A stretch of DNA of 64,000 nt from Candidatus Woesearchaeota archaeon (GTDB lineage: Archaea > Nanobdellota > Nanobdellia > Woesearchaeales > GW2011-AR9), in contig JABHQW010000003.1 of the NCBI GenBank assembly GCA_018696595.1, forward strand, positions 192,001-256,000, given 5' to 3'. The position numbers were made by a program, and so were the translations under genes. This document shows, piece by piece, positions 1,046-47,884 of this stretch. A model generated the notes under the pieces. It saw only the letters and a list, made by a program, of their open reading frames with translations. It made no database searches and was not told where the DNA came from. How positions within the stretch are numbered: the first letter of the stretch is position 1; every line of letters starts with the position of its first letter.

Positions 1046-2167
1046 TTGCCAATTTTACAACCATTGTATGAAGATGTACAAGTAGAAACATTTCAAGGAA
1101 AATATCAAGTCCAACTAGAAATTCTTCCAGAATCCACATTAACAAGAGATGACATTCAAAGAGTCTTAGAATTAGCTTCTTGGAGAAAAGACCCAAATAC
1201 AGAACCAGTTAGTTATGAAGGGGGCAGAGGTATATTAGTTCCAAGAAAAGAACCAATAACAATTCAAGATCAAAAATTAGAAACATTGTTAATTAGCGGA
1301 ATTGGTTATCGTAAGATGTTAGTTGATGATTCTGGAAATGCAAGTGTTGAAGAAGATATTTTTTATCCGCCATCAACAGAAAATTTTATGGATGGTCTTC
1401 CAAAAGGATTGATTGGCTATAGTTACGCCAAAGGAGAAGAAATCGTTGATGAATTTGATGGATATTCCCCGTTAGGAACATACACGACAGAAACATTAAA
1501 AGAAAAGATTGAACAAACAAGATTAGCATCGGGCTTAGGGTTAACCAAACTGATTGTCCCCCCAATTGAAGCATATGGAAGATTTGTTAATGAAGAATTA
1601 CAAAATGATTCTGGAAACTTTGGGTTCTTAGTTTTTTCGGTTCCAGAGAATAACAAAAGATTCAGGGAAAGATTAAGGAACATAATTTGTAGTGGTAAAG
1701 AAGATAACACCATATTGAATCACGTTCTTCAATCTATGCAATCATTCATTTCGGTCATTTATCCGGGACTGTATGAATTACATTGGAAGGGTTATGCTCA
1801 TGGATCAACTCATTTATCCAATTGGTATTCAGAAAATAAAGCCATACTCAGCGATTGGGAAACAACACAAAAGTTAGATGGAAATAGAATAGATAATGCA
1901 TTAAACTGTTTAATTGATTTTCACAGACCAATTGTAGAGATGTGCCACCTTATTAAAGACTTTGAAATTGATCAAGAACTATTAGAAAAAATTGAAGAGG
2001 CAATATTTTATGATGCGATTGAAAATTATTGTCCCGAAAGATATCCTGGATTCAATCTTGATCCCAGAAAAATAGATTTAAGAGACAAAGATTCAAAAAC
2101 AAGACCAGAGTTAATTGAATGGATGAAGCAATGTATGGAAACAGAATTATCACTAAAAATTGTATAG
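1046..2167 (+). CDS. Orphan protein with atypical kinase-like (SelO-like) motifs
   Basis: 373-aa ORF; TTG start about 30 nt after ATTATATA; motifs GGRG, SGIG and LHWKGYAHGSTHLSNW...LSDWE. Confidence 0.55.
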   Translation: MPILQPLYEDVQVETFQGKYQVQLEILPESTLTRDDIQRVLELASWRKDPNTEPVSYEGGRGILVPRKEPITIQDQKLETLLISGIGYRKMLVDDSGNASVEEDIFYPPSTENFMDGLPKGLIGYSYAKGEEIVDEFDGYSPLGTYTTETLKEKIEQTRLASGLGLTKLIVPPIEAYGRFVNEELQNDSGNFGFLVFSVPENNKRFRERLRNIICSGKEDNTILNHVLQSMQSFISVIYPGLYELHWKGYAHGSTHLSNWYSENKAILSDWETTQKLDGNRIDNALNCLIDFHRPIVEMCHLIKDFEIDQELLEKIEEAIFYDAIENYCPERYPGFNLDPRKIDLRDKDSKTRPELIEWMKQCMETELSLKIV

Positions 2168-2269
2168 CTAAAGCTACTTTAAATATTTATAATAAAAATG
2201 ATTTAACATTAAAACATAGCTAACGCTAAGTATAAATTTCTTTCAATCTAAACAACATAGCTAAAGCTA
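2165..2269. repeat. Three copies of palindrome TAGCTAA(A/C)GCTA
   Basis: Copies at 2165-2176, 2217-2228 and 2258-2269, read directly from the sequence. Confidence 0.8.
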
Positions 2270-2299
2270 TTCTAAAATTAAAAAAAAGAAAAAAATGAA

Positions 2300-2327
2300 A
2301 AGCCATACACAATGACAAAACCAACAT
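2300..2327 (-). other. 3' arm of the pre-23S processing stem
   Basis: Complementary to 5260-5287 on the minus-strand transcript: 27 of 28 pairs including G-U. Confidence 0.8.
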
Positions 2328-2334
2328 GCTAAAG

Positions 2335-5250
<2,916 letters not shown>

Positions 5251-5545: not shown

Positions 5546-7112
<1,567 letters not shown>

Positions 7113-16645: not shown

Positions 16646-16795
16646 TTTGGTTGGAAGTAATGGAACAATCTATTTAAACATTATTAATCAATATTCAATA
16701 GTGTTTATGAGGAAATAAAGAATTGTTTATTGATTATCAAAATTTCTGTCATTTTATGAGAAAAGTTTATATATACTTACTCCTTAGTGGTAAAT

Positions 16796-18544
16796 ATGTC
16801 TCTTGAAGAAGATGAAAATCAATATACTGAAGAAGATTATGGGGGACCCCACTATAGAACTGGAGGCATGGCATATTATGGAGAAGGAGACTTAGAAGAC
16901 AGATTAGGTTTCTTAGTAGCCAAACATGATAAAGATGGTGATGGTTGGGAACTTAGTACATCATGGGCATTATACTCAAAAGATGGTAATAATCGTAGAT
17001 TTGGTGGTTCACATGATAATATTTCAGGAATAAGAACATTTCCAAATGGATTACAATTTCTAAATACTGATAACAAGATACAGCGTAGTTATTTCTCAAT
17101 AGAAGGTATTGAATTTAGTGTTGGTTATCACGGACCCCAATCACATGATAACATAGTGGCTAATTTTGCAAATTGGCAAGAATATTTTAGTTATGATAGA
17201 ATAAATCCAAAAACTTTACAATCAGTTAAAAATTGGTTAATGGATGATAATAATCCAATAGATCAAATAAAAATAGAATTAGTTGCCGAAATTTCGGAAA
17301 AATGTTTATTAGATAAAAGTGAAGCACTCTTTGGGATTAATCCAAGTGAATTTTTAGATATATTCTCTGAAGGTTTAAGAAACCCATTTTATCAGAACTT
17401 ATTTTCCCAAGTCATAGATTATTACTTTGAGCTGGGAGAGACTCAACTTAACCCTCATGAACTTAATGAAGCAATTGTTAAGAATACTGCTCAATGGTAT
17501 TCCGAAGCAAGGCCATATGAAGAGGATCTTCGTAAAAAAGCTGATTCTTTGGCAGAAGGAGCAAATGCAAAGGATTGCTTAGATGCAATATTAAAACAGG
17601 GCCGATTTTCCAGTGTTAAAGAGTTAGGAGAATGTGCAAGTATTCAATTACCACATCATTACGTCATCAAGAAACATGCTTCTGGAGGATGGAGCCAAGT
17701 ATATCTAATTATAGATAAAGGAGAAACAGATGAAGATTTCATTAAAGTACTCAAAGTTCCAAAAAATAATATTGACATGAATAAAGATCCCAACGTTAAG
17801 AAAATAATTGAAAAAAATTCTAGTATAGAAAACACCCTTAAAGCAATTGCGGAGGAGGAAAAGAGAATTAATAGCAAAACATCCAACACATCTAATGATA
17901 ACTTTCCAAATTTTGAATATCGTCCATTGCCACAGTTCCACGAAAGTTACGTAGGGAATAACGGAATCCCATTATTAATTTACGAATTTATTCGTGGGGA
18001 AACCCTAGAAGATCATTTTGAAGAAGAAAGGCCACTTGAAGAAAAGTTAGATGTTTTAACTAGAACCGCATATTCATTAAACTATATTCACCAGAAAGGA
18101 TTTACTCATAATGATATTAAAAAAGATAATTTCATGAGAAGTGAAGTTAATGATAGAGTTTACTTATTAGACTTAGGACTTTCCAGAGTTACTGAATCAG
18201 ATTCAAGTATTCGTGGAAAAAGAGCTTATGCCGCTCCAGAAAGAATAACGGGACAATCTAACCCCTCTGAAGAAGCAGATCAATATAGTTTTGGAGTGAT
18301 GGCTTATGAAATTCTTACAGGAGAATTACCCATTGACTTTGGAGAAACTGAAGAAGAAAAAGCAGAGATGGTTATAAAAGTAAGAGATGGCGAAGTTCTT
18401 CCAGATTACGAATTGCTTAGAGAAAGAGTACCTTCACAACTTGCAGAAATAATTGAAATTTGTTTATCTTACGACCCAAAAGACAGATACGGATCTATGC
18501 AAGAGGTTGAAGATCAATTATGGGCATTGCAGAATCCTGATTAG
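16796..18544 (+). CDS. Hanks-type Ser/Thr protein kinase with unknown N-terminal region
   Basis: SGGWSQVY, IKVLK, HNDIKKDN, DLGLS, YAAPE and DQYSFG motifs; ATG 16796 lies about 30 nt after TTTATATA, preferred over GTG 16787. Confidence 0.9.
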   Translation: MSLEEDENQYTEEDYGGPHYRTGGMAYYGEGDLEDRLGFLVAKHDKDGDGWELSTSWALYSKDGNNRRFGGSHDNISGIRTFPNGLQFLNTDNKIQRSYFSIEGIEFSVGYHGPQSHDNIVANFANWQEYFSYDRINPKTLQSVKNWLMDDNNPIDQIKIELVAEISEKCLLDKSEALFGINPSEFLDIFSEGLRNPFYQNLFSQVIDYYFELGETQLNPHELNEAIVKNTAQWYSEARPYEEDLRKKADSLAEGANAKDCLDAILKQGRFSSVKELGECASIQLPHHYVIKKHASGGWSQVYLIIDKGETDEDFIKVLKVPKNNIDMNKDPNVKKIIEKNSSIENTLKAIAEEEKRINSKTSNTSNDNFPNFEYRPLPQFHESYVGNNGIPLLIYEFIRGETLEDHFEEERPLEEKLDVLTRTAYSLNYIHQKGFTHNDIKKDNFMRSEVNDRVYLLDLGLSRVTESDSSIRGKRAYAAPERITGQSNPSEEADQYSFGVMAYEILTGELPIDFGETEEEKAEMVIKVRDGEVLPDYELLRERVPSQLAEIIEICLSYDPKDRYGSMQEVEDQLWALQNPD

Positions 18545-18570
18545 TTCTCATCTCATTTAGAAACTATATT

Positions 18571-19482
18571 TTAATAATTTAATCCATAAAATGGCCCGGA
18601 GATATCCCAAAGTTTTCTCATAATATTAACTAAATGAGAAACAATAATATGTTCATCAGGACTTAACTTCTTTCTAAGATCATAATAAGTATGGAAAAGT
18701 AATTGGTCTTTGATTTTAGAAATCTCTTCAATCTTCTTGTTATTTTTTTCATAAAAAGCTTGATAAAACAACAACAATGCTTTATTTACTTCCTCAAAAA
18801 ATTGTAAAGTGGCTTTTGATACTTTTTGAACAGAATGTTTAGAACAAAATTGATAAATATACCTATATTGATTAGAAATCTTTTCTAAGTTCCAAACAAC
18901 CAAATATTCAAAAATCATTGACTCCTGATTATTTCGATGCTTATTTAGAATTCTTTTACAAAAGTCAGTGTACTTGGTAATTACTTTAGCTTTATGGTGA
19001 ATCTCTTCTAATTGGCTAAATTCTTTGTTTTTAAGACTATAAAATATTTCTTCACTAAGTTCCAATAAAAGAATAAAAGAATTTTTAAGAATATCATCAA
19101 ACTCTGATTCTAGTTGCATAGCAATATTTCTAACTTCACATTCTTTTTTTCTTCTAGAAACAACTTCAATTCCCAGAAGCCAATCAACAACACTTTGTAT
19201 TTCCCTCAAAGCAGACTCGTCTTCATAATGGAAAATTATTTTATCGTAACCTTTTTTGTAAATATTACCAATTATTGCCCTTATGTTTGAATCAGTACTT
19301 TTCTTAATCTCAACTTTAGTTTCTCCAACATGAACAGAGTTCCCGCCCCAAAGTTCGAGAATATTTCCTTTCTCATTTAAAGTTACTTCATCGCCTTTCT
19401 TGACGTTATATTTCTTAGTCCACTTAGCTGGTAAACTCACCATTAATGTTGCAGGGCCAACTTGACATACTTTTCTTTTCAT
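18571..19482 (-). CDS. AbrB/SpoVT-type DNA-binding domain fused to PhoU-like helical regulator
   Basis: MKRKVCQVGPATLMVSLPAKW-x-K.....KGDEV N-terminus; IYKKGYD..I motif. Confidence 0.85.
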   Translation of the reverse strand: MKRKVCQVGPATLMVSLPAKWTKKYNVKKGDEVTLNEKGNILELWGGNSVHVGETKVEIKKSTDSNIRAIIGNIYKKGYDKIIFHYEDESALREIQSVVDWLLGIEVVSRRKKECEVRNIAMQLESEFDDILKNSFILLLELSEEIFYSLKNKEFSQLEEIHHKAKVITKYTDFCKRILNKHRNNQESMIFEYLVVWNLEKISNQYRYIYQFCSKHSVQKVSKATLQFFEEVNKALLLFYQAFYEKNNKKIEEISKIKDQLLFHTYYDLRKKLSPDEHIIVSHLVNIMRKLWDISGPFYGLNY

Positions 19483-19594
19483 ATTAAGATAGAAAAGGAG
19501 CAGATATTTAAATATTTCGTTTTATTTAAATATAATTATGCATTATTATAATATAAGGATAATGTTTAAATGTTTAGCCAAATGATAGAATTCT

Positions 19595-19975
19595 ATGAAA
19601 AGCAAAACATATTCCCGTTTCGGGAAATTATTGGAAGATTGTAAACCCTCATTGGGTCAATTGGGAGAAGCATTAATGAATTACGCTGTTAGTAGTGGAA
19701 AACAATTCTTAGTAGAAAGAGAACAAAGAGAAAGCATAAAAGAAAATATTGGAGAAGAATATTTTCAATTAACTGGAAAAGAAACAAATGATCTCTTAAA
19801 AAATTATATCTCAAGTTCAGTAAACCAAGGATGGCAACTTTACCAAGAGCATGGTGAGAAGAGAGCTGAGTTATTTACGATTGATCGGTTAAAGAAAGCC
19901 AAGGATGATTTTACATTAGAAGCTAAAGTTGTTAGTGCAATTGATGCAAAAGTAGAATATTTAGAAAATAAATGA
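19595..19975 (+). CDS. Hypothetical protein, first gene of an accessory operon
   Basis: 126-aa ORF; TTTAAAT 30 nt upstream. Confidence 0.7.
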   Translation: MKSKTYSRFGKLLEDCKPSLGQLGEALMNYAVSSGKQFLVEREQRESIKENIGEEYFQLTGKETNDLLKNYISSSVNQGWQLYQEHGEKRAELFTIDRLKKAKDDFTLEAKVVSAIDAKVEYLENK

Positions 19976-19990
19976 TGAGGCAAATAAAAA

Positions 19991-20203
19991 ATGGTGAAAT
20001 ATGAAAAAAACACTTACGAATGGAGTGGTCCAACAGATGGAGTATTAGGAACATCAACATATCGAACTGATGTGTGGGATGATTCTGGATATAAAGTAGC
20101 AGAAGGAATAGGTTCTTCAAGAGAAGAAGCAGAAGACAATGCCAGAGATAATATTATTGAAGAAGGAGTAAACATGGGAGAATTCTATAAAACCATGGAT
20201 TAA
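19991..20203 (+). CDS. Small acidic protein, weak dsRBD-like C-terminal half
   Basis: SD-like GAGG upstream; AEGIGSSREEAEDNA resembles the dsRBD beta3-alpha2 G-x-G-x-S-K/R-x-x-A motif. Confidence 0.65.
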   Translation: MVKYEKNTYEWSGPTDGVLGTSTYRTDVWDDSGYKVAEGIGSSREEAEDNARDNIIEEGVNMGEFYKTMD

Positions 20204-20235
20204 GAATAACTATTAATTACGGAGGAAAAATAAAA

Positions 20236-20676
20236 ATGGAAATGAGACCCCTTGAACATAAAATCGCCCTCCTAATTGATGGCCCAAATATGTACCCAAT
20301 AGAGTTTAAAGAAATCAAAGAAATAGCAGAAAGATATGGAACAATTGTATTGACAGAAGTTTATCTTAACAAGCATGCTTCGAGAGGGTTAATTGAGGCA
20401 GCAATAAACGGAGGATATCGTCCAGTAATAGAAGCAATTGATGATATTGATACTTCTCTTTGTACTAGAGCCACAGAAATAATCTGTTCTCCACGTTATG
20501 AACAAGTAGATTTAATAGCAATTGCTAGTTGCGATGGAGATTATGTGCCTCTAACGCACAAAACAAAAGAATATGGCAAGAAATGTTTAGCTATTATGAG
20601 TGATACCAATGGCAGATCTATTGCTTTAAAAAATTCTGTGGATTATCTTGAAATCATTAACCCGAGAACAGAATAA
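20236..20676 (+). CDS. NYN domain (PIN-fold, LabA/DUF88-like) protein
   Basis: IALLIDGPN, DIDT-x-L, IAIASCDGDY-x-PL....KEYGK and LKNSVD motifs; SD GGAGG. Confidence 0.9.
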   Translation: MEMRPLEHKIALLIDGPNMYPIEFKEIKEIAERYGTIVLTEVYLNKHASRGLIEAAINGGYRPVIEAIDDIDTSLCTRATEIICSPRYEQVDLIAIASCDGDYVPLTHKTKEYGKKCLAIMSDTNGRSIALKNSVDYLEIINPRTE

Positions 20677-20710
20677 AAAAATAAAAAATAAAAGATTTGG
20701 AGGAAAGAAA

Positions 20711-20863
20711 ATGGAACCATTAGAAAAAATGATAGAAGGTTATAGAAGATTAGAAACAGAAATAGAAACAGATATTGGCTATCAAAAATTAGAAGTTAAT
20801 TATGGGAACAAAGATTTAAAGTTAACCCATGAACAATGTCCAAGCCAATGTTCAAATAAGTAA
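20711..20863 (+). CDS. Candidate RiPP precursor peptide (50 aa, C-terminal core HEQCPSQCSNK)
   Basis: SD GGAGG before ATG 20711; MEPLEKMIEGYRRLETEIETDIGYQKLEVNYGNKDLKLTHEQCPSQCSNK; ends 8 nt before the radical SAM gene. Confidence 0.7.
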   Translation: MEPLEKMIEGYRRLETEIETDIGYQKLEVNYGNKDLKLTHEQCPSQCSNK

Positions 20864-20871
20864 TAACAAAA

Positions 20872-22248
20872 ATGATAATGACTAACCCGAAAACTCGGAT
20901 ATGGGAAATAGGAAATAAAAAAGTAATGTTTAATTCATTACATGGAAAGCCATTAATACCAACCGAGGGGTTAATCAGATTATTAGAAACTTTTAAAGAA
21001 CCAAGAGACCAAGAAGACATCATCAAAACAGTTAGTCAAAAAGAATTAAGAATAATTGAGGACTTGGTCTCAATGGACTTTTTAATAAATCCCCTTAAAG
21101 ATGTTTATGAAAAAGTTAAAGAAAGAGAGAAACAAGAACTTAATAATAACTTAGAGGGATTAAACCTTTATAATCTTAGACTAAACGTAACCTCTTCTTG
21201 CAATCTTGCGTGTCAATATTGTTATGTATATCAAAGAAAAGAAGAAATTTCTTCTTTTAAAAATATGAGTACAGAAATTGCAGAAAAATCAATATCTCTT
21301 TTCTTTAAATTTCTTAAAGAAAAAGAAGAGCAAAGAATACAAACAAAAGCTATTCCCAAAATAAGATATTTTGGAGGGGAACCCTTAATCAATTTCCCAG
21401 TAGTCAAAAGAAGCGTAGAACTAACAAGTCGTTTGGCAGAACAATACAATATTAAGGTCCAATCGATAATCAACACAAATGGTACAATATATGATCAGGA
21501 GATAGAAAAATTTCTTTTAAGTAACCAAGATTTAAATTTAATAATTAGTTGGGATGGATTAGGAGATTACCATGATTTAGTAAGACATTCCAAAAATAAT
21601 GAAAAAAGTAGTAAAAAGATAATGAAGAACTTTGAAAGGATGATGGACCAAGGGATAAGACCCACCATCAGTTGTGTACTATCAGAAAGAAATAAGGACC
21701 ACCTTAAAGAATTCATTGATTATTTAGCAGAAAAAAAATTAAAATATTTTGGCATTAGTGTACAAACAGTCTCACAAACAGGCGACAAAATGAGTTCAGA
21801 AGAAAAAGCAAAAAGATTAATAGAAGTTATGAGTTATGCTAAAGAAAAAGGAATTGAAGTTGATGGGCCGTGGTCTTGGCAATACAGGTTATTTAATGAC
21901 AACACAGAAGTTTCTTATTGTGGAGCAGTAGGAGGAGAAATCCATGTAAGTGAAAATGGAACAGCCCACCCCTGCCATTTAGTTAAACTAAAATATGGTG
22001 ATATCACAAAAATAAAAAAACTAGAAGAATTATTTGTTTCTCAAGAATATAAAACAATAATTAACAGAACAATATCTGCAATGTATGATGATTGTAATTC
22101 TTGCGATTTAGAAGGTTTATGCGCAGGTGGATGCATGGCAGAATCCTATGAAAGAACAGGAGATTATTCGAAAAGAGGAGAAGGGTGTGAATTTAAAGTA
22201 GAAATGACAAAACAGTTATTAGAAAAATATCTAGAAGAGATGGACTAA
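20872..22248 (+). CDS. Radical SAM/SPASM peptide maturase with N-terminal RRE (PqqD-like) region
   Basis: CNLACQYC, FGGEP, INTNG, ISWDG; SPASM CG...G..HPC...CNSC....CAGGC...C; about 75-aa N-terminal extension ending DLVSMDFL. Confidence 0.88.
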   Translation: MIMTNPKTRIWEIGNKKVMFNSLHGKPLIPTEGLIRLLETFKEPRDQEDIIKTVSQKELRIIEDLVSMDFLINPLKDVYEKVKEREKQELNNNLEGLNLYNLRLNVTSSCNLACQYCYVYQRKEEISSFKNMSTEIAEKSISLFFKFLKEKEEQRIQTKAIPKIRYFGGEPLINFPVVKRSVELTSRLAEQYNIKVQSIINTNGTIYDQEIEKFLLSNQDLNLIISWDGLGDYHDLVRHSKNNEKSSKKIMKNFERMMDQGIRPTISCVLSERNKDHLKEFIDYLAEKKLKYFGISVQTVSQTGDKMSSEEKAKRLIEVMSYAKEKGIEVDGPWSWQYRLFNDNTEVSYCGAVGGEIHVSENGTAHPCHLVKLKYGDITKIKKLEELFVSQEYKTIINRTISAMYDDCNSCDLEGLCAGGCMAESYERTGDYSKRGEGCEFKVEMTKQLLEKYLEEMD

Positions 22249-22288
22249 TTAAAACAAATTTTACAAAAATAATTAGGTGGTAAAAAAG

Positions 22289-22408
22289 ATGAAACAACAA
22301 TGCCAAGCTAAATGCCGCAATGAGACTGATTGCTTAAATAAAGCTTTACCAGAATCAGATTATTGCTGGTTACATAAAAGAAGAGAAAAAGAGAGTAATA
22401 AACAATGA
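22289..22408 (+). CDS. 39-aa Cys/His zinc-finger microprotein (below the ORF-track cutoff)
   Basis: SD AGGTGG; MKQQCQAKCRNETDCLNKALPESDYCWLHKRREKESNKQ; QC-x-A...C-x-x-KA....YC-x-x-H pattern resembles DUF5763. Confidence 0.7.
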   Translation: MKQQCQAKCRNETDCLNKALPESDYCWLHKRREKESNKQ

Positions 22409-22484
22409 AAAAGTTTAAATATATAGAAAGCACATTATTTAATAGAAAGCTTTTTTCAACCACAACAAAAAAGGTCTTAATTAA

Positions 22485-22613
22485 ATGGAAATAAATAAAC
22501 TCATCTTTTCTTTAATAAAAATAAGTGTCCTTTCATTCACGGTGTGGTATCTTTATAATGATACAAAAAAAAGAATGAACCATAGTACTGTTGTAGAAGA
22601 GAAAGAAAAATAA
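22485..22613 (+). CDS. 42-aa single-TM microprotein
   Basis: MEINKLIFSLIKISVLSFTVWYLYNDTKKRMNHSTVVEEKEK; co-oriented, fills the intergenic gap. Confidence 0.5.
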   Translation: MEINKLIFSLIKISVLSFTVWYLYNDTKKRMNHSTVVEEKEK

Positions 22614-22641
22614 AGAACAAAGGAAAAGATAACAAATAAAA

Positions 22642-23715
22642 ATGGCAGAAGGAATAGTAGCAATTATTGTAGCAGGGATTATAGGGTTCCGATTATGGTC
22701 CCATTATAACCGCAATGGTCGGAATAAAATAGATCGAAAATCTAGGGAGAATCAACAGACATACCAGAACCATACTTATACAACTGCATATGAGACCGCA
22801 AATTCACATAAACACATACAACAAGAAAATATTAAACTGATCAGAGGAATTAACTTCCAAAGATTTAAAAAAATCAAGTATGTTCCAAAAGAAAGAGATT
22901 ATTTCTCAGATTTAGAAGAATTAATTAAATTAGGAATCACCCCTCACATCTTTGTTGAGTCTTTAATGGCCGTTCATTTAGAAGGGAGAAAAGCCAGTTG
23001 CTGTTTTTCAGATCAGATAAATTTTCAGTCTTCAATCGAACAATTAGAACTAATTGCTAAAAAAATAAAAGAGGACTATAACATTTTCATGGATGCGATT
23101 GCAATTCCCTTTGGTAAAGGATGTATGATGCTTTTCTTTTTCTTCAAAGACATCAAAGAATATAAAAGAATAGAGAAGTTACAAAAAATTAGTGAGAACC
23201 CAGATATATCCCTCGAAAAAATCTTCAAAAACCCAGAATTAGTGAAATTATGGGGAGAAATATTAGATTATCCAAAATGTTGTGTTGATTTCTGTGTTGA
23301 AACAAGGAAAGGCAATAAAGATATAGAAAAAGAATGTTCTGAAATGTTAAAATCCATCCAAGAATATAAGAAAGTTGACAAAAGTAAGATTAAAAAAGAT
23401 GAAAAAGATAACGATAAGAAAGAATTATCTATTCCAGAGAAAGTTTTGACAAATTACTTTGCTTACGAATTTTATCCTTGTAATCCTAACTGTAAAGAAG
23501 CCAAGAGAATTGGAGATGAAATTAAGAAAAGATTTAGTGAAAAAGATAAAAATCTTGCTACAGCATTTCAAATCAACTCAGAATTTAACAGCCGTAAAGT
23601 GCTAAATCTCTGTACTGATCCAAAAATGGAAAAATTCCAGAACATGATGAAAGACAGAATTATTCATCGTTTATTTTCTGTTCATCATGAAGCTAAAAAA
23701 CTTAAAACCAAATAA
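22642..23715 (+). CDS. Membrane-anchored protein with DUF483-like Cys motifs
   Basis: N-terminal TM; WGEILDYPKCCVDF and FYPCNPNCKEA resemble DUF483 G-x-x-L-G-Y-P-x-C-C and PC-x-x-x-C. Confidence 0.6.
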   Translation: MAEGIVAIIVAGIIGFRLWSHYNRNGRNKIDRKSRENQQTYQNHTYTTAYETANSHKHIQQENIKLIRGINFQRFKKIKYVPKERDYFSDLEELIKLGITPHIFVESLMAVHLEGRKASCCFSDQINFQSSIEQLELIAKKIKEDYNIFMDAIAIPFGKGCMMLFFFFKDIKEYKRIEKLQKISENPDISLEKIFKNPELVKLWGEILDYPKCCVDFCVETRKGNKDIEKECSEMLKSIQEYKKVDKSKIKKDEKDNDKKELSIPEKVLTNYFAYEFYPCNPNCKEAKRIGDEIKKRFSEKDKNLATAFQINSEFNSRKVLNLCTDPKMEKFQNMMKDRIIHRLFSVHHEAKKLKTK

Positions 23716-23837
23716 TTCATTTTTCCAATACATAATAAAAAGCAAAGCTTTTTGGGATGTCCTGGAAAATATTTCTTTTTCCAATAGATTTAAGTAACAG
23801 TAAACATTTCTCAAATTCAGTTAAAAGAGGTCAATAA

Positions 23838-29278: not shown

Positions 29279-30268
29279 TTATTGGGCTTTAGATTTCAGC
29301 TCACCAAAAGCCTTATTAATTTCTTGATCTGTCCAACCAGTATTATGTTTAAGAATTTCTCTTACACCTTCGTCAGAAGTACCCATTCTTTTTTCCTCAT
29401 GAATCCAAGTCTTCAATTCATCAAAATTGTAAGCTTTCCTATGCGGATGAACAAAATGTACAACCACTAAGATTAAAACTATGATAAAAGATAGTACTGA
29501 AGGAATCCCAATGATATAAGTTTTATATTGGTTCCAATAATTCCAATAAGATGATGTTGGTTGTTGTATTTGTGGTTCTACTGCTGGAGGAGGTAAATCT
29601 GGTTCGATTTTTTGTGGTTGCGGACCAGGGACAGTAATTTGATTACAATTCTTTTGCAATAATGGTTTCTTGAATGTAGTGCCACAAGAATGGTCGTCTA
29701 CACAAGTTCTTTTCTGTACTCCGTTACTACAATCGTTCCATAACGAACAGAACCAGGATTCTTTACATTCTTCACAAGATTGAACTTCTTTTTTAGGTTT
29801 ATCACAACCGTTTTTATCTGTACAAGTTCTACTTTGTTCTAAAGTTGCATTACACAATGACCAAGTGCCACATTCCCACTTTGAAGAACAATAGTTTATA
29901 TTGCCACCGCCTGGAGATGGTGTTGTTGTAATGGGAGGCACTGTATAACAACCAGGAGAATCTACACAGAAAAATTGTTCAGTATTACCGTTAGCACAAT
30001 TCACTTTAATTTTATATTTTCCTGCGTTTAGATTAGAATTAGTATTATAAGAAGTCACCCAACTATTTTCTCCACTTTTAATATCTACTAACTCATCTGC
30101 AGAATCTAAAAAAACTTTAAGAACAGAATTCCCTGTACATTCAGCAACTGTTAATTGTACATTTTCAGGATGAGAATAATCCGTTTTATCAGTTGTTACA
30201 GTTACTGCTAAAGCTAAACTCATGCAAAGAATAAAAGTTAAAAAGTAGATTATCTTCTTCATTTTCAT
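29279..30268 (-). CDS. Secreted, C-terminally anchored protein with TSP1-like WxCxxWSxC repeats
   Basis: Signal peptide; WECGTWSLC...QSRTCTD and WFCSLWNDC...QKRTCVD; C-terminal TM and short helical tail. Confidence 0.8.
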   Translation of the reverse strand: MKMKKIIYFLTFILCMSLALAVTVTTDKTDYSHPENVQLTVAECTGNSVLKVFLDSADELVDIKSGENSWVTSYNTNSNLNAGKYKIKVNCANGNTEQFFCVDSPGCYTVPPITTTPSPGGGNINYCSSKWECGTWSLCNATLEQSRTCTDKNGCDKPKKEVQSCEECKESWFCSLWNDCSNGVQKRTCVDDHSCGTTFKKPLLQKNCNQITVPGPQPQKIEPDLPPPAVEPQIQQPTSSYWNYWNQYKTYIIGIPSVLSFIIVLILVVVHFVHPHRKAYNFDELKTWIHEEKRMGTSDEGVREILKHNTGWTDQEINKAFGELKSKAQ

Positions 30269-32895
30269 TCTCCGTAAGGTGTTTCTAACTCACCTGAAAC
30301 AGTTTGTCCTTGATCTGGAAGTTTGTCGTAAACAATCACAGATTTTTTAGTAACTTCACTATCTTGATAATTTACTGAGACAGTATAAGGATTATCTACT
30401 TCCATACCACCTTCAACCTTTTGTGATTTGATTACTAGAACTTTATCATCTTCACCGTAAAGAACGGTGTAAGCAGTAATCTCTTCAGTGAAATCTTCAA
30501 GTGCAGTGATTAATGTAGCATAGATTCCGTTGTTTGGTTCCACTTCTGTCAAAGTTATTTTTTCTGTTGTTTCTGGAGCTATTGGTTTAGGAAGACAAGC
30601 ACCTTCTTCACAGCCAAATTCGCATTTGTAAAACAAATAAGGTGTAATACTTTCAGCTAAACAGTTCCTTTCTAAAATATAATCCATTTCAGTATCAAAA
30701 GGTTCATCATCAGGATTTAATGGAACATTTCCTCCTTCCCCAGGCGGTAATGCTAAATCAGAACCTACAACACACCCATCATAATCTGTTTTGAATTCTT
30801 CATCATCCCACCATTTAATAGTTCCTTTGGTAAACGGATCACTATCTGGGTCAGTATCTGTACAAATTTTAACACATTCTGCTTCTTCACAAGCTTCTCC
30901 TTCTGCACAATCGGTATTTAACTGACATCCTAGATCTTCAACACAAGCACCGTCTGTATTACAAACATTTCCACCTTCACAAGTACCACAACTTCCACCG
31001 CAACCATCTGAACCGCAAACTTTTCCGCCACATTGTGGTTGACATTCATCACAAACTGGTAAACTTACATCAACACAATCAGCAGATGTATATTGTGAAC
31101 AAAAATCTAACCCAATTAAAGTGCTTAATTGATTGTTTTGATCAATATTAAAACGAACACAACAAGGAAGAACTTCTTCTACGATTAGATTGTCTTGAAG
31201 TTTAAGTGTTTCCAATTTAGTCATACAAGACAGAGCACTAATATCAGTAATATCGTTATCATAAAGATAAAGATTTTTCAAATTGGTCAAACTAGACAAG
31301 GGAGCAATATTAACAATCTCGTTATTATAAATATAAAGATATTCCAAAGCAGTTAGACTAGACAAAGCACTAATATCCACTATCTCGTTATTACTAAGCC
31401 AAAGAGTTCCCAAAGCAGTTAAACTAGACAAAGGATTAATATCAACAATCTCGTTACCACTAAGACTCAGATATGTCAAACCAATTAAACTAGACAATTT
31501 ATCTAAATCCTTGCTAACAAGTCCATTGCCAAAACTTAAAGATTTTAAAGAAGAGAAATATGAATAATCAGACAAAATAGTTAAGTCATCACCATCAAGT
31601 TCATTGCCATTAAGATACAATTTATTTAATTGATTTAAATTAGATAAGGAAGTGATATCAGAAATGTCGTTATTAACAAGATTAAGATATGTCAAACCAA
31701 TTAAATTAGACAAAGGAGCAATATTAATAATATCGTTGTGACCCAGACTAAGAAATGTCAGAAGAGTTAAATCAGACAAATCACTGATATCAACAATTTT
31801 GAAGTTACCATAAAGATTAAGAGATTTCAAACCAGTTAAACTAGATAAGGGAGCAATATTAATAATATCGTTATATTTCAGTATAAGATCTTTCAAATTG
31901 GTCAAACCAGACAAGGGAGCAATATCAACAATGCTGTTATCACCAATATTAAGATCGTTCAAACTAATTAGATTGGATAGGGGAATAATATTAACAATAT
32001 TTTTGTTACCATAAAGATTAAGAGATTTCAAACCAGTTAAACTAGATAAGAGAGCAATATCAACAATTGAATTATACTTAAGTTCAAGTGTTTCTAAACT
32101 AGTCAGATGTTCAATCCCGCCCAATTCAACAATCCCTAAATTATTTGCATTCAACCCAGTCAATTCTACAACATCAGCAGGATAAATATCTCCTTCTGGT
32201 TTTTCAATAGCGCCTCTAACAGCTGCTTCTAATTGAGGATCATCAAAAGTAATTGCTTCCCCCTGTGCTTCACCTTCAACAACAATAAAAACATCTTCAC
32301 CTTCAACAATTAAATCTGCTGCTTCCGGATCATTGAAATCATAAATATTAAATATATCAAAAATCAAAGGATAATTTCCTGCAAGAGGATCTGCAGCAAA
32401 AGTAATAGTAGCAATATCAAAAGTTCCACTTTTTACATTATTGAAATTTAGAGTGGAATAATTAAAATGGATTTTATGATCAACAAGATCACAAGTGATA
32501 TATTCAAGTTCTGGACCCCAATCGGCTAAAAGATGATTTTCAATTGCTGCTGGACAGTCATCTTTTAAAATTAAATTGCCATAATCTAATGTAAAAGCCA
32601 AAGCTAGAGTTTCTTTATCGGCTTCTAACTGAGTACTAACAACCACTATAATATCTTCTCCTGACTCCGCTATATTCTCTGTTAAGAAAATTCCCGCTTT
32701 TCCTAATTCTGGAACATCGGCTGTTATAGCTTCTCCAACAACGGGCTGTTTCATAAACAAGAATAATGATAATGCTACAAGTGCAATAATTGTAACTATT
32801 GCAATGATTAAAGTTTTGTTAACTTCTCCTTGATTTGCTCCAGAATGGGCTTCCCAACTATGTGGAGGTAAAGGTTTGTATCTTTTCCGTACCAT
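30265..32895 (-). CDS. Membrane-anchored cohesin-like plus internalin-type LRR surface protein
   Basis: N-terminal TM; cohesin-like beta-sandwich; ITFDDPQLEAAVR LRR cap; about 14 x 22-aa LxxLxLxxNxIxDI repeats; Cys-rich modules. Confidence 0.85.
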   Translation of the reverse strand: MVRKRYKPLPPHSWEAHSGANQGEVNKTLIIAIVTIIALVALSLFLFMKQPVVGEAITADVPELGKAGIFLTENIAESGEDIIVVVSTQLEADKETLALAFTLDYGNLILKDDCPAAIENHLLADWGPELEYITCDLVDHKIHFNYSTLNFNNVKSGTFDIATITFAADPLAGNYPLIFDIFNIYDFNDPEAADLIVEGEDVFIVVEGEAQGEAITFDDPQLEAAVRGAIEKPEGDIYPADVVELTGLNANNLGIVELGGIEHLTSLETLELKYNSIVDIALLSSLTGLKSLNLYGNKNIVNIIPLSNLISLNDLNIGDNSIVDIAPLSGLTNLKDLILKYNDIINIAPLSSLTGLKSLNLYGNFKIVDISDLSDLTLLTFLSLGHNDIINIAPLSNLIGLTYLNLVNNDISDITSLSNLNQLNKLYLNGNELDGDDLTILSDYSYFSSLKSLSFGNGLVSKDLDKLSSLIGLTYLSLSGNEIVDINPLSSLTALGTLWLSNNEIVDISALSSLTALEYLYIYNNEIVNIAPLSSLTNLKNLYLYDNDITDISALSCMTKLETLKLQDNLIVEEVLPCCVRFNIDQNNQLSTLIGLDFCSQYTSADCVDVSLPVCDECQPQCGGKVCGSDGCGGSCGTCEGGNVCNTDGACVEDLGCQLNTDCAEGEACEEAECVKICTDTDPDSDPFTKGTIKWWDDEEFKTDYDGCVVGSDLALPPGEGGNVPLNPDDEPFDTEMDYILERNCLAESITPYLFYKCEFGCEEGACLPKPIAPETTEKITLTEVEPNNGIYATLITALEDFTEEITAYTVLYGEDDKVLVIKSQKVEGGMEVDNPYTVSVNYQDSEVTKKSVIVYDKLPDQGQTVSGELETPYGE

Positions 32896-35114
32896 TATTC
32901 ATCATCCTCCATCAATGCAAACGCAATCAGTGAAATCTTTTGTAAGTTATTTTTATCTTCATCTAAAATCCCTACCACTTCGTTTATTAAGTCTACTTTA
33001 GTGGGGTCAGTAATTTCATAATCCTCATCCTCACCATTGGGATCACTTGCAAAGAAATCTTTCAATCTTATTGCTATCTGTACTAATGGATCTCCAGTAT
33101 CAATTGCAGTTACTAAATCAGTTTGTGATAATAAAATATTTATTTCAGTTCCAGCTCCAGGAAGACAAGCACCATTAGCACAACCATTAGGACAATCATA
33201 AAGCAAAGATTCAGGATTAACTCCCGTACAAAATTGTTCATTTAATTTACAAGTTTCATCAAAACAAGTAGGAACATTTTTGAGAGCTCCATTTACCATC
33301 ATCTGACAAGCGTCATGATTATCAGGAGACTCGGAAATTAACCCATTCAAGAAATAATTTTTCCCATCTGGATATACATTGGTCACGTCAGTATCTGTAC
33401 AGGTTGCAACAACTTCACAAGCACCAGCATTACAACTTTCTCCATTTCCACATTCCCCACAAGTTCCACCACAACCGTCATCACCGCAAACTTTATCTCC
33501 ACAAACTGGAACACATCCGTCTCCAGGACAAGTTCCCCAAACAGGTTTATTCTCATTTGCTAAAGGACTATCTACTGCAAAGTTCCAAGGTTCTTGAGCA
33601 ATACTTGTAACACACCAACTACTAAGATCTTGATTAAAAGAAACAGCATTTTTAAACATCACTCCCATACTAGTTACAATCGAAACATCCCAATCACTAA
33701 TGTCTTCATTGAAAGAGATAGCATTCTGAAACATATTCACCATATTTGTTACACTTGATACTTCCCAAGAACCAATATCTTGGTCAAAAGAAGAAGCACT
33801 ATTAAACATACCTGGCATAGAAGTTACACTAGAAACATCCCAATCACCAATATATTGGTTAAAAGAAGAAGCACCATTAAACATAGATTGCATATTAGTT
33901 ACAATCGAAACATCCCAATCATTAATACCTTGATCAAAAGAAGAAGCACTATAAAACATAGCTGACATAGAAGTTACACTAGAAACATCCCAATCACCAA
34001 TATATTGGTTAAAAGAAGAAGCACCATTAAACATAGATTGCATATTAGTTACACCATTACTAGCTTCATCAAACCAATCATCTGCTTTAAATTGAGTAAT
34101 TTGAGTTGCTTCCCGGAACATATTCCTAGCAGAATTAATTCCAGTTACCCCTGGACTTAATGAGGATAAAATATTAACTAATAATTCTGGTGTCCCAATA
34201 ATTTGCCCATTCGCAGATTCTCCAAAGGCAATTCTACTAGCTTCTCCACAAACATAGACGTCATGAGTTCCAATATCAGCAAAAGGATAACTTCTCAAAT
34301 CAGTTCCTTGATAAGTTTCAATAACTCCATCTTCCCATTTTACATTCAGATTAACAGCACCATCTGTTTGAAATTTAAATTCTTGACCTACTTCAATTGT
34401 TTCTATTTGAAAAGTAAATGGTTGAGCACACATTACTACGCCTCCAACTTCTTCTACACAAGCATCCTCAGCTTCATTCGGTATATAACCAGCATCACAA
34501 CTTAAAACACAATCAGCATCATATTCACCATTAGCAGGATCAGCAGGACAAACATCTCCAGCAAATTCAATAGTAATTATTTTTGCTGGAGTTGAGCCAA
34601 GTACTGATTCAGGATACAACCCCGGAAATGGAACTGGTTTAAACACAGATTCAATTAAATCTGATCCAGGATCTATTGACAAAGTTACTTGCTCTGACCC
34701 TTCAGCAACCGTTCCTGTTGCTTTAAACTGATACAATAATTTACTTCCACTAATAACTTTGTTTGCTCCCTGTGTAATTGCCTCAATATCCCATCGACAA
34801 AAGTTATCGCCAACAATACATTCATTATTTTTTCCAGTCGCGGCAGTAAACTCACTTGTAGAAAAAATGGTTCCTTGGCTTACCGCATCAATGAAACCAA
34901 TAAAATCCCCATCTGAAATTAAATAGAGATTTGCGTTTGTTAAAGTTATATCATCCTGCCCAGAGTCCAAGTAAACAGAAACAATAATATCTTCTCCACT
35001 GGAATACTTCTCCTTATCAGTTGTTATACTAACATCTAGTAATGCTGAAACAAAAGTTGCACATAAAAGTACTGAAACCAAAAAGATAATAATTTTAAAA
35101 ATTGTTTTTCCCAT
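32895..35114 (-). CDS. Secreted cohesin-like plus DUF285 (BspA-like) repeat protein
   Basis: Signal peptide; cohesin-like N-domain; 25-aa repeats V(T/S)xMxxMFxxAxSFNQxIxxWDVS; Cys-rich modules. Confidence 0.85.
33816..34053. repeat. 150-bp-period tandem duplication inside the DUF285 array
   Basis: 33816-33903 is identical to 33966-34053 (88 bp). Confidence 0.9.
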
Positions 35115-45595: not shown

Positions 45596-46024
45596 TTAAA
45601 TGTCTACTAGAACTTTAGCATACCAACCTTTATCGGTTTTCTTAACTTCAAACATATGCATTGTAATTGCTTTAATATCTACTTTTTGTTCATGTTTCTC
45701 AGGATCAATCTTCTCACCATAAGCAATACAGGTTAATTTATACTTGCCATTTTCTTCTGTAACTTTACAATCAAACTTAGAAAAAATTATTCTTTCTGAA
45801 TCCTTATGAAATAATAAATCATCTAAGAAGTCAAACAATAAATATTCAATATTTTCATTTTCTCCTGTAATTTCTCTTTTCTGTTCAGCAGAAAATTGTT
45901 TCAGATTAACTTGTACTTCTTCTACAGCTAACCCGCATTGTTCAAATAATTCCCCCAATGTAGAAGCTTCCGCTACAAAAAGTTCATCCGCAGTATGTTC
46001 CAGGAATTTATAGTTTGCTTTCAT
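45596..46024 (-). CDS. Archease (tRNA-splicing ligase RtcB cofactor)
   Basis: YKFLEHTAD...DIKAITMH-x-F.......AKVLVDI. Confidence 0.93.
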   Translation of the reverse strand: MKANYKFLEHTADELFVAEASTLGELFEQCGLAVEEVQVNLKQFSAEQKREITGENENIEYLLFDFLDDLLFHKDSERIIFSKFDCKVTEENGKYKLTCIAYGEKIDPEKHEQKVDIKAITMHMFEVKKTDKGWYAKVLVDI

Positions 46025-47778
46025 TCTAATATCGCCTTAATCCGTCTAACACCAGCACTTGAAGACCCTTCCTTCTTAATTTTAAAAACTCCCAACTCAG
46101 AAATATTTGAAACATGAGGACCCATACAAATCTCTTTGGAATAATCCCCAACAGTATAAACAGAAACTTTCTCTGGATACTTTGCACCAAATTCCCCGTG
46201 CGCCCCAGAATCTAAAGCGTCCTGTAATTTCATCTCTTCACGTACAACAGGAACTCCTGAAGAGATTACGCGATTAACTTCTTCTTCAACAGCAGTAAGT
46301 TCCTCTGCAGTTAGTTTCCGATCAAAATTGAAATCAAACCTTAATCGATCTGCAGTAATGTTAGAACCTCTCTGTTTAACATCTTCTTTCAAAACACGAC
46401 GTAAAGCTTCATTCAATAAATGTGTAGCAGTATGTAATTTAGTAGTTTCTTCAGACGCATCTGATAAACCACCTTTAAACTTTTTCTCTGCACCAATTCT
46501 AGATAGTTCTTGATGTTTTTCATATTCAGCATTAAATCCAACAACATCAACTTTAATATCTTTCTCAGCAGCCAATTCTTCAGTCATCTCAATTGGAAAA
46601 CCATATGATTGGAATAACAAGAACGCATCTTCACCAGAAATTTCTTTTGCATTTTCAGCAAGCTTAGCAAACTTGTTCAATCCTTTTTCTAAAGTTCTCT
46701 TGAACTTATCTTGTTCTTTTCTCAACTCTTCAAAGATAATATCTTTCTTCTCTTCTAATAATAGATACTCTTGATTATACATAAAAATAACAATTTCTGC
46801 CAAGGAAGTTAAATCAATCTTTTCAATAGCTAATCCTAATGAACGGAAATGTCTGATTGCACGACGAATAAATCTTCTTAAGATATAACCCTGATCAACA
46901 TTACTAGGAACAACAGCCCGTTCATCTCCAAGAATAAATACTGAAGCTTTAACATGATCTGCAATGATCCTAAAAGATTTCTCATTTCCAGAATATTTCT
47001 TCTTAGTTACTTTCTCAATCTTTTTAATCAACGGCAAGAATAATTCAGTCATATAATTATCATTTAATCCATTTAAGACAGCAAGAGTTCTTTCAAATCC
47101 GCCGCCAAAATCAATACTTTTCTTTTTCAATTGTTTAAATTTCCCATTCTTAGTTTTCTCATACTCAATAAGAACATCATTTCCAATCTCTACCCACCTG
47201 GAATCGTCAACATCAAACTTTTCTGAAGGAACATCTTTAGATGCCCAGAAATATATCTCTGTACTAGGACCACAAGGACCAGTTTCTCCAGCAGGACCCC
47301 ACCAATTATCTTCTTTACCCAAAAAACCAATTCGTTCTTTTGATACACCTAAACTAAGCCAAGCTCTTGCAGCTTCTTCATCTTTAGGTGCGGCATCGTC
47401 TCCAGCGAAACAAGTGAACGCTAAATGTGATACAGGTAATTTCAATTCCTTAGTAAGAAACTCAAAAGTCATTTCAATCGCTTCTTTCTTAAAATAATCC
47501 CCAAGTGACCAATTCCCCATCATTTCAAAGAATGTGTGATGTGTTGCATCTCCAACTTCATCAATATCACCAGTACGGATACATTTTTGGAAGTTAGTAA
47601 CTCTTTCTCCCAGAGGATGATTATTATCTAAGAAAAAAGATACTAATGGCTGCATTCCTGCAGTTGTAAATAGTACAGTGGGATCATGTTCGGGGATTAA
47701 AGGTGCAGATGCAATTACAACATGCCCTTTACTTTGGAAAAACTCTAAATATTTCTGTCTTAGTTCGTTCGCTTTCAT
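46021..47778 (-). CDS. alaS: Alanine-tRNA ligase, short form lacking C-Ala domain
   Basis: LFTTAGMQPL, QKCIRTGDI, HHTFFEMMGNWS, GPCGPSTE, IIADH, LHTATHLL and EICMGPHV motifs; ATG 47778. Confidence 0.96.
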   Translation of the reverse strand: MKANELRQKYLEFFQSKGHVVIASAPLIPEHDPTVLFTTAGMQPLVSFFLDNNHPLGERVTNFQKCIRTGDIDEVGDATHHTFFEMMGNWSLGDYFKKEAIEMTFEFLTKELKLPVSHLAFTCFAGDDAAPKDEEAARAWLSLGVSKERIGFLGKEDNWWGPAGETGPCGPSTEIYFWASKDVPSEKFDVDDSRWVEIGNDVLIEYEKTKNGKFKQLKKKSIDFGGGFERTLAVLNGLNDNYMTELFLPLIKKIEKVTKKKYSGNEKSFRIIADHVKASVFILGDERAVVPSNVDQGYILRRFIRRAIRHFRSLGLAIEKIDLTSLAEIVIFMYNQEYLLLEEKKDIIFEELRKEQDKFKRTLEKGLNKFAKLAENAKEISGEDAFLLFQSYGFPIEMTEELAAEKDIKVDVVGFNAEYEKHQELSRIGAEKKFKGGLSDASEETTKLHTATHLLNEALRRVLKEDVKQRGSNITADRLRFDFNFDRKLTAEELTAVEEEVNRVISSGVPVVREEMKLQDALDSGAHGEFGAKYPEKVSVYTVGDYSKEICMGPHVSNISELGVFKIKKEGSSSAGVRRIKAILE

Positions 47779-47884
47779 TTTAAGAGTAGGAATATGGTTT
47801 GTTTTATATATTTTATTAGTAATTGCAGTATATACTTTGTAATAAACAATTCTTTTTAAATCTGAAACAAACAACATAAGCTTA

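Follow-up and report, generated by a model that had tools for sequence, protein, structure and literature searches.

A gene pair in a DPANN archaeon that very probably encodes a cross-linked ribosomal peptide and its radical SAM/SPASM maturase

We analyzed a stretch of 64,000 nucleotides from the genome of a Candidatus Woesearchaeota archaeon (assembly GCA_018696595.1, contig JABHQW010000003.1, positions 192,001 to 256,000), which is called the window in the following. On its forward strand, a gene for a peptide of 50 amino acids lies directly upstream of a gene for a radical S-adenosylmethionine (SAM) enzyme, which carries a SPASM domain and an N-terminal recognition element (RRE) of the kind found in maturases of peptides that are synthesized by the ribosome and modified after translation (RiPPs) (Table 1). 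The two genes very probably form a cassette for a cross-linked ribosomal peptide, which is a known kind of system. More specifically, we consider it fairly likely that this two-gene RiPP cassette works by docking of the leader on the RRE, after which the enzyme makes one or more thioether rings in the core of the peptide. An initial annotation, made from the letters of the sequence without database searches, had offered this interpretation, and it is supported by the analyses described here.

The enzyme exceeds the Pfam cut-offs for both of its domains. The Radical_SAM model (PF04055) gives 65 bits at a cut-off of 29.5 bits and the SPASM model (PF13186) gives 24.2 bits at a cut-off of 21.5 bits. 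The full set of SPASM cysteines announced by the initial annotation is present. It follows the pattern C350, G363-x4-C368, C408-x2-C411-x5-C417-x3-C421, C439, and these residues are invariant or nearly so in both alignments used, A1 and A2, the latter consisting of the query and 46 homologues (47 rows). By analogy with the enzymes TigE and CrpC, C350, C368 and C421 would be the ligands of auxiliary cluster I (Aux I), which would retain one open site, and C408, C411, C417 and C439 would be those of auxiliary cluster II (Aux II).

About 95 residues stand before the radical SAM core. In an AlphaFold model of the enzyme (predicted local distance difference test, pLDDT, 93; predicted template modelling score, pTM, 0.92), residues 1-72 (pLDDT >90) form the strands E8-13, E16-21 and E25-28 and the helices H32-39, H47-53 and H56-67. 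A profile search of the PDB with alignment A2 identified TigE (8VPO) over the whole length (3e-106), CteB (7e-65) and, for the core only, the anaerobic sulfatase-maturating enzyme anSME (3e-49). Structural alignment of the model by VIA-align gave a Z of 34.8 for TigE (model residues 1-458) and of 31.6 for CteB (model residues 5-457), and Foldseek was concordant with this result. For anSME the Z was about 28 over residues 97-458. The core of the model can be superposed on many radical SAM structures. The alignments with anSME and ChlB begin only at residues 94-99, and residues 1-95 can be aligned only to the RRE-bearing TigE and CteB. At the sequence level, the N-terminal domain was aligned to TigE residues 6-85 and to the N-terminus of CteB. 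The published RRE of TigE comprises residues 3-85 (PMC10878394). Since the extension aligns to this element and consists of three strands and three helices in the manner of a PqqD-like winged helix-turn-helix, it is regarded as an RRE, and the fold that had been proposed for it before is present in the model.

All strong NCBIfam matches of the enzyme are peptide maturases, namely PapB (1e-45), DynA, QhpD, FibroRumin, SCIFF, nif11, CefB, CcpM and TIGR04463. The best model is that of the PapB ranthipeptide maturase (NF047865), for which the enzyme reaches 156.4 of the 340 bits required. It reaches 103 of 425 bits for the SCIFF maturase (TIGR03974) and 92.7 of 525 bits for the CrpC family (TIGR04463). 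No other radical SAM/SPASM gene with an RRE was found in the genome. A further SPASM/twitch-type radical SAM open reading frame (ORF) of 368 amino acids (G000:C8:62073-63179; L121:1366-2472, minus strand) has no N-terminal extension of RRE length and adjoins a gene for a secreted, Cys-containing protein of 211 amino acids.

The precursor peptide has the sequence MEPLEKMIEGYRRLETEIETDIGYQKLEVNYGNKDLKLTHEQCPSQCSNK. It begins with MEPLEKMIEGY, continues further on with YGNKDLKL and ends in THEQCPSQCSNK. The peptide with its Shine-Dalgarno (SD) motif, charged leader-like region and short Cys-bearing core was found where it had been described. Two C-x-x-x tetrads, CPSQ and CSNK, finish exactly at the C-terminus, and the boundary between leader and core would lie at residues 38/39. 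The distance of 8 nt (20864-20871) between the stop of the peptide gene and the enzyme gene was confirmed for the first ATG of the enzyme ORF at 20872; public gene calls place the enzyme start at 20878, which gives a gap of 14 nt. Against the Pfam and NCBIfam models (NCBIfam at E <= 0.01) the peptide showed no family match, the SCIFF precursor model included, in agreement with the earlier view that it stands outside the known families.

Gene calls for exactly this product of 50 amino acids exist on 41 public contigs, which include NCBI records. Two population variants from other samples carry the exchanges T39P and P44Q, both of which are located within the last 12 residues. Both Cys are retained in these variants. 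No exchange was seen in the leader of any population variant, and all 25 full-length contigs of the enzyme encode the same protein sequence. In this small sample, which includes some short contigs, there is a hint that variation is confined to the core while leader and enzyme stay constant. The single features of the ORF are weak on their own and their statistical support is modest: an SD 5-mer precedes about 3.5% of all ATGs of the window and 5 of its 46 long ORFs. Of the 2597 small ORFs in the genome, 26 (1%) have a CxxxC motif among their final 12 residues, and 28% contain at least two Cys. The ORF is credible because it lies on the same strand directly 5' of the RRE-radical SAM/SPASM gene, because of its calls on public contigs and because Cys peptides occur beside most homologues of the enzyme.

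Two members of the enzyme's own clade were viewed in their genomic context, an archaeal one (locus L091) and a bacterial one (L220). The L091 enzyme is 32% identical to the enzyme described here and matches the PapB model NF047865 with 3e-54. Upstream of it, an ORF of 37 amino acids ending in ITCACICTYKGY overlaps the enzyme start by 4 nt. In this metagenome-assembled genome (MAG) the pair (L091:4891-6702, JAZDNM010000003.1) lies between a full-length class-I aminoacyl-tRNA synthetase gene (1841-4693, minus strand) and an ORF of 96 amino acids (6412-6702, minus strand). The latter looks like a duplicated N-terminal fragment of such a synthetase, which suggests that the pair was inserted there. 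Cys-rich peptides also flank most of the DPANN homologues of the enzyme (L094-L098, L102, L103, L105-L107, L110, L116 and L224). The expectation that homologous loci would carry upstream peptides therefore holds in so far as short Cys-rich peptides are present at L091 and at most DPANN loci; these peptides are analogous, not orthologous, to the 50-amino-acid peptide.

In two DPANN genomes (L095:1103-3445 and L224:632-2935), a peptide of about 51-54 amino acids, an RRE-radical SAM-SPASM enzyme and a gene product of about 255-261 amino acids are encoded together as a conserved unit of three genes. Read by eye, the third gene is putatively methyltransferase-like. The peptides end in ASGKCCMCCS (L095) and ASAKCCMCCR (L224). 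They match no NCBIfam model, and a profile of this family found only these two members among 5.8 billion proteins. Their leaders read MLEKIIEPFE and MIDKILEQYE, followed by YGKIDLY and YGNIDVY, compared with LEKMIEGY and YGNKDL in the peptide described here. In a global alignment with the L095 and L224 peptides, the 50-amino-acid ORF reached z-values of 2.9 and 3.4 (shuffle test); out of 3643 small ORFs in its genome, it took rank 7 for L095 and rank 1 for L224. The regular expression for the N-terminal motif was chosen after inspection of the data. Homology of the three leaders is suggestive at the level of sequence similarity.

A second DPANN precursor family is found at L096 (1129-1293) and, on the reverse strand, at L110 and L097. 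It shows the leader ME[KPN]LE[AV][KR].AE[EF] and one or two core copies and is encoded 5' of its own clade of maturases. The L096 and L110 peptides contain MELRCKGWCHD repeats and the L097 peptide carries MRCAGMCRGSCSC; the maturase reading frame of L110 is split (82 and 387 amino acids). A MAFFT alignment of the 50-amino-acid peptide with this family was not convincing. L098 carries ECCGEGCGKCTVCP together with two maturases, L116 carries CSCQCACDCVCICDC, and the peptide of L105 ends in LVKCCI. At L103, a Cys-rich ORF of 137 amino acids is located 5' of the enzyme gene.

For an estimate of the chemistry, the enzyme was compared with characterized members of the RRE-SPASM group, which is chemically diverse (PMC10288494). 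The best solved match is TigE (PDB 8VPO), which forms cyclopropylglycines like its relative TvgB (PMC10878394). TigE shares the architecture of RRE, radical SAM domain and seven-Cys SPASM domain with the enzyme, but the identity is only about 21-25%. The motif GYW is reported to be strictly conserved in and specific to these cyclopropyl synthases, and its Tyr in TigE is a ligand of Aux I which is needed for activity (PMC10878394). Among the 47 aligned rows of A2, the motif occurs only twice. In the enzyme described here it is replaced by GPW, so that Pro333 occupies the place of the ligand Tyr (dGPWswqY aligned with tGYWhitY of TigE). TigE and TvgB act on precursors with repeated Val/Ile motifs (TVGG, TIGSVS), whereas the peptide ends in a single two-Cys core and has no such repeat. 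Membership in the cyclopropyl synthases was rejected on these grounds. In a quick tree with SH-aLRT support, the enzyme belongs to a clade (support 99) with P0017, P0020, P0024, L091/P0002 and P0018, and the sister subclade holds P0063 and P0064 in addition to the two GYW proteins.

With three predicted Cys ligands and an open site, Aux I resembles the corresponding cluster of CteB and TigE and also that of CrpC, a ranthionine synthase from an archaeon. CteB (PDB 5WGG/5WHY), which matures the SCIFF peptide CteA, is alike over the full length including the RRE, and its open Aux I site binds a Cys of the substrate. In both enzymes the sequence PCH, with its His, follows the Aux I Cys. Six residues in catalytic proximity were compared with those of three solved enzymes, CteB, TigE and anSME. 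They read YFNSHL in the enzyme, FFTSHQ in CteB, FFVSKG in TigE and FQQSDF in anSME, so that three of six are identical to CteB. In the archaeal CrpA, ranthionines were mapped experimentally to the C-x-x-acceptor motifs CAGM, CAVD and CPLV (PMC13692751). The open three-Cys Aux I, the proximity residues and the recurrence of Cys in the peptides beside homologues favor Cys-based cross-linking, and since the core also consists of two C-x-x-x tetrads like those C-x-x-acceptor motifs, one or two small thioether rings are favored. By analogy, the product is most likely a ranthi- or sactipeptide-like thioether RiPP with a (CPSQ)(CSNK) core.

A RiPP cassette with other chemistry would explain the same gene pair. 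The enzyme could introduce a C-C or C-N cross-link, cyclize single residues in a way related to its TigE/TvgB neighbors, epimerize residues or oxidize Cys, and the role of the core Cys would then be limited to anchoring a cluster or to subsequent disulfide formation or metal binding. This explanation is favored by the fact that cyclopropyl synthases make up both the nearest solved structure and the sister subclade. Further points in its favor are the distance to the cut-offs of the PapB, SCIFF and CrpC families, the proximity positions 3 and 6, which differ from CteB, and the diversity of the group noted above. The closest solved relative is no thioether synthase, so that thioether formation is a proposed chemistry. 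However, the diagnostic GYW reads GPW here, and Cys is the one feature common to the peptides beside most homologues. The core contains neither Val nor Ile and no aromatic residue save His40, so that substrate motifs of the cyclophane, streptide or cyclopropylglycine type are missing. The best NCBIfam model, moreover, is that of a ranthipeptide maturase. We hold chemistry other than thioether formation to be unlikely, though worth weighing.

For the thioether cassette, the following course can be proposed. The charged N-terminal part of the precursor (about residues 1-38) would dock on the RRE, by which the core THEQ-CPSQ-CSNK would reach the radical SAM/SPASM active site. Reductive cleavage of SAM would yield a 5'-deoxyadenosyl radical, which would take a hydrogen from a core residue. 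The resulting carbon radical would be joined to Cys43 or Cys47 through the sulfur, which the open iron site of Aux I would hold in place. The product would contain one or two small thioether rings of the ranthionine or sactionine type, with a loss of 2 Da per ring. We infer the binding of leader and RRE, the thioether chemistry and the ring positions, and likewise removal of the leader, export and a biological role. A complex prediction with the full enzyme alignment, the peptide, three 4Fe-4S clusters and SAM gave a median score of 0.51; the control with an unrelated enzyme gave 0.71, so that binding is neither favored nor disfavored by this prediction.

Several observations weigh against this course. 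The precursor is an orphan, as only 98%-identical variants were found as its relatives among 5.8 billion proteins, and it holds just two Cys. BLASTP gave no alignment of the peptide with the L095 and L224 peptides, and a hidden Markov model built from these two sequences did not place the 50-amino-acid ORF among its top genome-wide matches. SD motifs are seldom used in this genome, and the pair has no linked gene for a leader peptidase, a transporter or immunity. The enzyme lies far below the cut-off of every curated NCBIfam maturase family, and its clade is sister to the GYW cyclopropyl synthases, which act on Val/Ile and not on Cys. At the bacterial clade member L220, no short peptide stands directly beside the enzyme. 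This locus (L220:797-5990) encodes the enzyme with a radical SAM-peptidase protein, a GNAT protein and a CPBP-type membrane protease, and an ORF of 115 amino acids with the motif PCPCGPC further 3'.

It can also be asked whether the 50-amino-acid ORF is the substrate, or a gene at all. The enzyme might instead act on a microprotein of 39 amino acids encoded downstream, on a DUF483-like membrane protein or on an unlinked protein. At L094, L102, L106 and L107 the Cys-rich peptide is located 3' of the enzyme gene, and the downstream microprotein has an SD motif of its own and five Cys, which are conserved in its variants. The individual features of the upstream ORF are statistically modest, as described above, and a protein substrate has a precedent in CrpC, which acts on the large CrpA (PMC13692751). 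The microprotein, however, which reads MKQQCQAKCRNETDCLNKALPESDYCWLHKRREKESNKQ, follows the zinc-finger pattern C-x9-C-x10-C-x2-H and matches zf-C3Hc3H and HGG_STG weakly. Its motif recurs in ORFs of 52-220 amino acids in 5 related genomes without an enzyme match at E <= 1e-10, so that it appears to be independent of the enzyme; judged by sequence, it is probably a stand-alone zinc finger outside the RiPP system. The DUF483-like protein was neither next to any homologous enzyme at the loci read nor found in the genomes G001-G005. The upstream ORF, in contrast, is tightly coupled to the enzyme gene and widely called. All of its variation lies in the C-terminal 12 residues, and in the comparison with the L095/L224 precursor family it ranks first or 7th within the genome. 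A substrate other than the upstream peptide is thus quite unlikely.

It is very improbable that the enzyme is anSME-like or another SPASM enzyme outside the RiPP field, active in cofactor or lipid maturation, with the small ORF standing there by coincidence: anSME models do match at 1e-24 and below, and the anSME fold aligns over the core as given above, but the enzyme scores 85.8 bits against the 349-bit cut-off of the anaerobic sulfatase maturase family (TIGR03942), anSME has no RRE and the first residues of the enzyme align only to RRE-bearing enzymes, the insertion CGMNGTCTC with the fourth Aux I Cys is missing, and a search for sulfatases (PF00884) detected none in the genome, which is 97% complete, while it gave matches in 10 of the 14 genomes used as controls, for 9 of them over the cut-off. 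Assignment as a sulfatase maturase was rejected on these four points, and the enzyme does not group with these maturases. Signatures of sulfatase maturases and of cyclopropyl synthases are both excluded for it.

Among other named systems, anSME (PDB 4K36-4K39) has the radical SAM and SPASM core in common with the enzyme, but its Aux I is fully ligated by Cys through the insertion. The SCIFF precursor contains six Cys in 45 residues, compared with two in the peptide described here. PapB, which makes freyrasin from PapA, belongs to the best-scoring curated family, and in both systems a short Cys precursor is encoded upstream. The match to its model covers residues 101-433 and thereby no part of the RRE. 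The core motif of PapA is a repeated Cys-X3-Asp, and no such repeat is found in the core of the 50-amino-acid peptide. CrpC of Methanococcus voltae (PMC13692751, 2026) is an archaeal RRE-radical SAM-SPASM enzyme which installs ranthionines and likewise has an Aux I with three Cys. Its substrate CrpA has the RRE recognition sequence at the extreme N-terminus; the candidate recognition motif of the peptide begins at residue 4. CrpA, however, is large and rich in Cys and carries an additional domain at its N-terminus, and a helper, CrpB, exists, whereas the candidate substrate here is a peptide of 50 amino acids without a helper.

Table 1. Features of the gene pair and its surroundings (positions within the window)
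Feature	Position	Strand	Remarks
Precursor peptide gene (50 aa + stop)	20711..20863	+	ATG at 20711, stop ending 20863
Shine-Dalgarno-like GGAGG	20699-20703	+	7 nt 5' of the peptide ATG, read directly
Putative leader, residues 1-38	20711..20824	+	acidic/charged; LEKMIEGY near the N-terminus, YGNKDL at residues 31-36
Putative core, residues 39-50	20825..20860	+	THEQ-CPSQ-CSNK; Cys43 and Cys47
RRE-radical SAM-SPASM peptide maturase, 458 aa	20872..22248	+	alternative start 20878 gives 456 aa
N-terminal RiPP recognition element, about residues 1-78	20872..21105	+	winged helix-turn-helix in the model
CxxxCxxC (C110, C114, C117), ligands of the SAM-binding [4Fe-4S] cluster	21199..21222	+	invariant in alignments A1 and A2
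G332-P333-W334	21865..21873	+	at the GYW position of cyclopropyl synthases (TigE alignment)
SPASM domain, seven Cys	21919..22188	+	C350, C368, C408, C411, C417, C421, C439
39-aa Cys4-His microprotein	22289..22408	+	AGGTGG SD; called on 49 contigs
Accessory island	~16700-23800		kinase, AbrB, small ORFs, NYN, RiPP pair, zinc-finger, TM and DUF483 genes

The gene pair lies in a segment that is missing from a genome of the same genus (G002, contig C24), in which the Na+/Ca2+ exchanger and helicase genes come almost immediately after the aminotransferase gene. The segment, which takes up about 7 kb of the window (about 16.7-23.8 kb), is therefore regarded as an accessory, strain-specific island. 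Besides the pair and the microprotein, it encodes Ser/Thr-kinase-like, AbrB/MazE-like and NYN-domain proteins, a transmembrane (TM) peptide of 42 amino acids and the DUF483-like membrane protein, which contains Cys. None of these neighbors recurs beside homologous enzymes at the loci read, and an eight-gene operon as functional unit, with the NYN, microprotein and DUF483-like genes, was rejected for this reason. Given this lack of recurrence and the zinc-finger motif in relatives without an enzyme match, the system is taken to consist of the peptide and the enzyme only. Elsewhere in the window (30265-35114, minus strand), two large adjoining genes encode a leucine-rich-repeat protein (875 amino acids) and a protein with DUF285 'Mycoplasma-type' repeats (738 amino acids), which are candidate surface or interaction proteins.

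No orthologue of the enzyme was detected in 60 relatives, where the best match is 27% identical, and any match at E <= 1e-15 was obtained in only 19 of 401 genomes of the phylum, with identities of 33% or less. The nearest homologues among 5.8 billion proteins are 32-33% identical. In a library of 1.8 billion proteins, the best matches (P0008-P0016) are bacterial fusion proteins of about 1100 amino acids, in which a radical SAM domain, Peptidase_MA_2 and an RRE-radical SAM-SPASM part are joined. We know of no description of this architecture. The L220 locus, on a metagenome contig, is a split version of this fusion, and the P0018 cluster includes a protein labelled Desulfobacula.

Based on its sequences, the host is a tiny, marine DPANN archaeon of the Woesearchaeota type, as had been supposed. 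The genome comprises 1.19 Mb, and the alanyl-tRNA synthetase (AlaRS) encoded in the window shares 69-83% identity with its counterparts in MAGs that bear the names Woesearchaeota or Nanoarchaeota; a small number of these MAGs carry the label Methanosarcinales. Beyond the DPANN MAGs, the next matches of the AlaRS gene (46021-47877, minus strand; about 50-57% identity) are from Patescibacteria and Clostridia and not from other archaea, which hints at an AlaRS of bacterial type in this lineage.

The architecture and likely logic of the cassette are those of RRE-dependent radical SAM/SPASM RiPP systems such as sacti- and ranthipeptides, and are known already. Specific to this locus are the orphan precursor, the minimal core with two Cys, the restriction to two genes without a linked protease or transporter and the location in a strain-specific island. 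By sequence comparison, enzyme and peptide fit no curated family, the enzyme belonging to an uncharacterized, non-GYW part of the TigE/TvgB clade. A mining study of 2025 lists radical SAM RiPP clusters of the ranthi- and sactipeptide type across DPANN (PMC12144867). The literature searched contains no characterized modified peptide of a DPANN archaeon, although such clusters have been counted there.

A wider reading, which we consider unlikely and speculative, is that DPANN archaea share a so far undescribed, lineage-wide group of radical SAM peptide systems. These would use one N-terminal motif for recognition (L-E-K-x-[IL]-E-x-[YF], followed by Y-G-[NK]-x-D-[LV]) again and again, with swapped cores (CPSQC here, KCCMCC elsewhere) and with maturases of different clades. 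As a member of the non-GYW part of the TigE/TvgB clade, the enzyme described here might act on its two-Cys core by a chemistry that is neither cyclopropanation nor classical thioether formation of the PapB or CteB type. If the reading were true, the host cell of the putative symbiont could be a target of the product.

For the two-gene thioether cassette, we see the finding as a clean, testable example and a good experimental target rather than as a new principle. With one peptide of 50 amino acids and two Cys and one enzyme, it is about as small as such systems get, and therefore an easy target for co-expression. It could reveal which reactions are carried out by those relatives of the cyclopropyl synthases that lack GYW. 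Its location in a strain-specific island, within a genome of 1.19 Mb that has retained few accessory genes, is a hint that the product may be of importance for the interactions of the cell.

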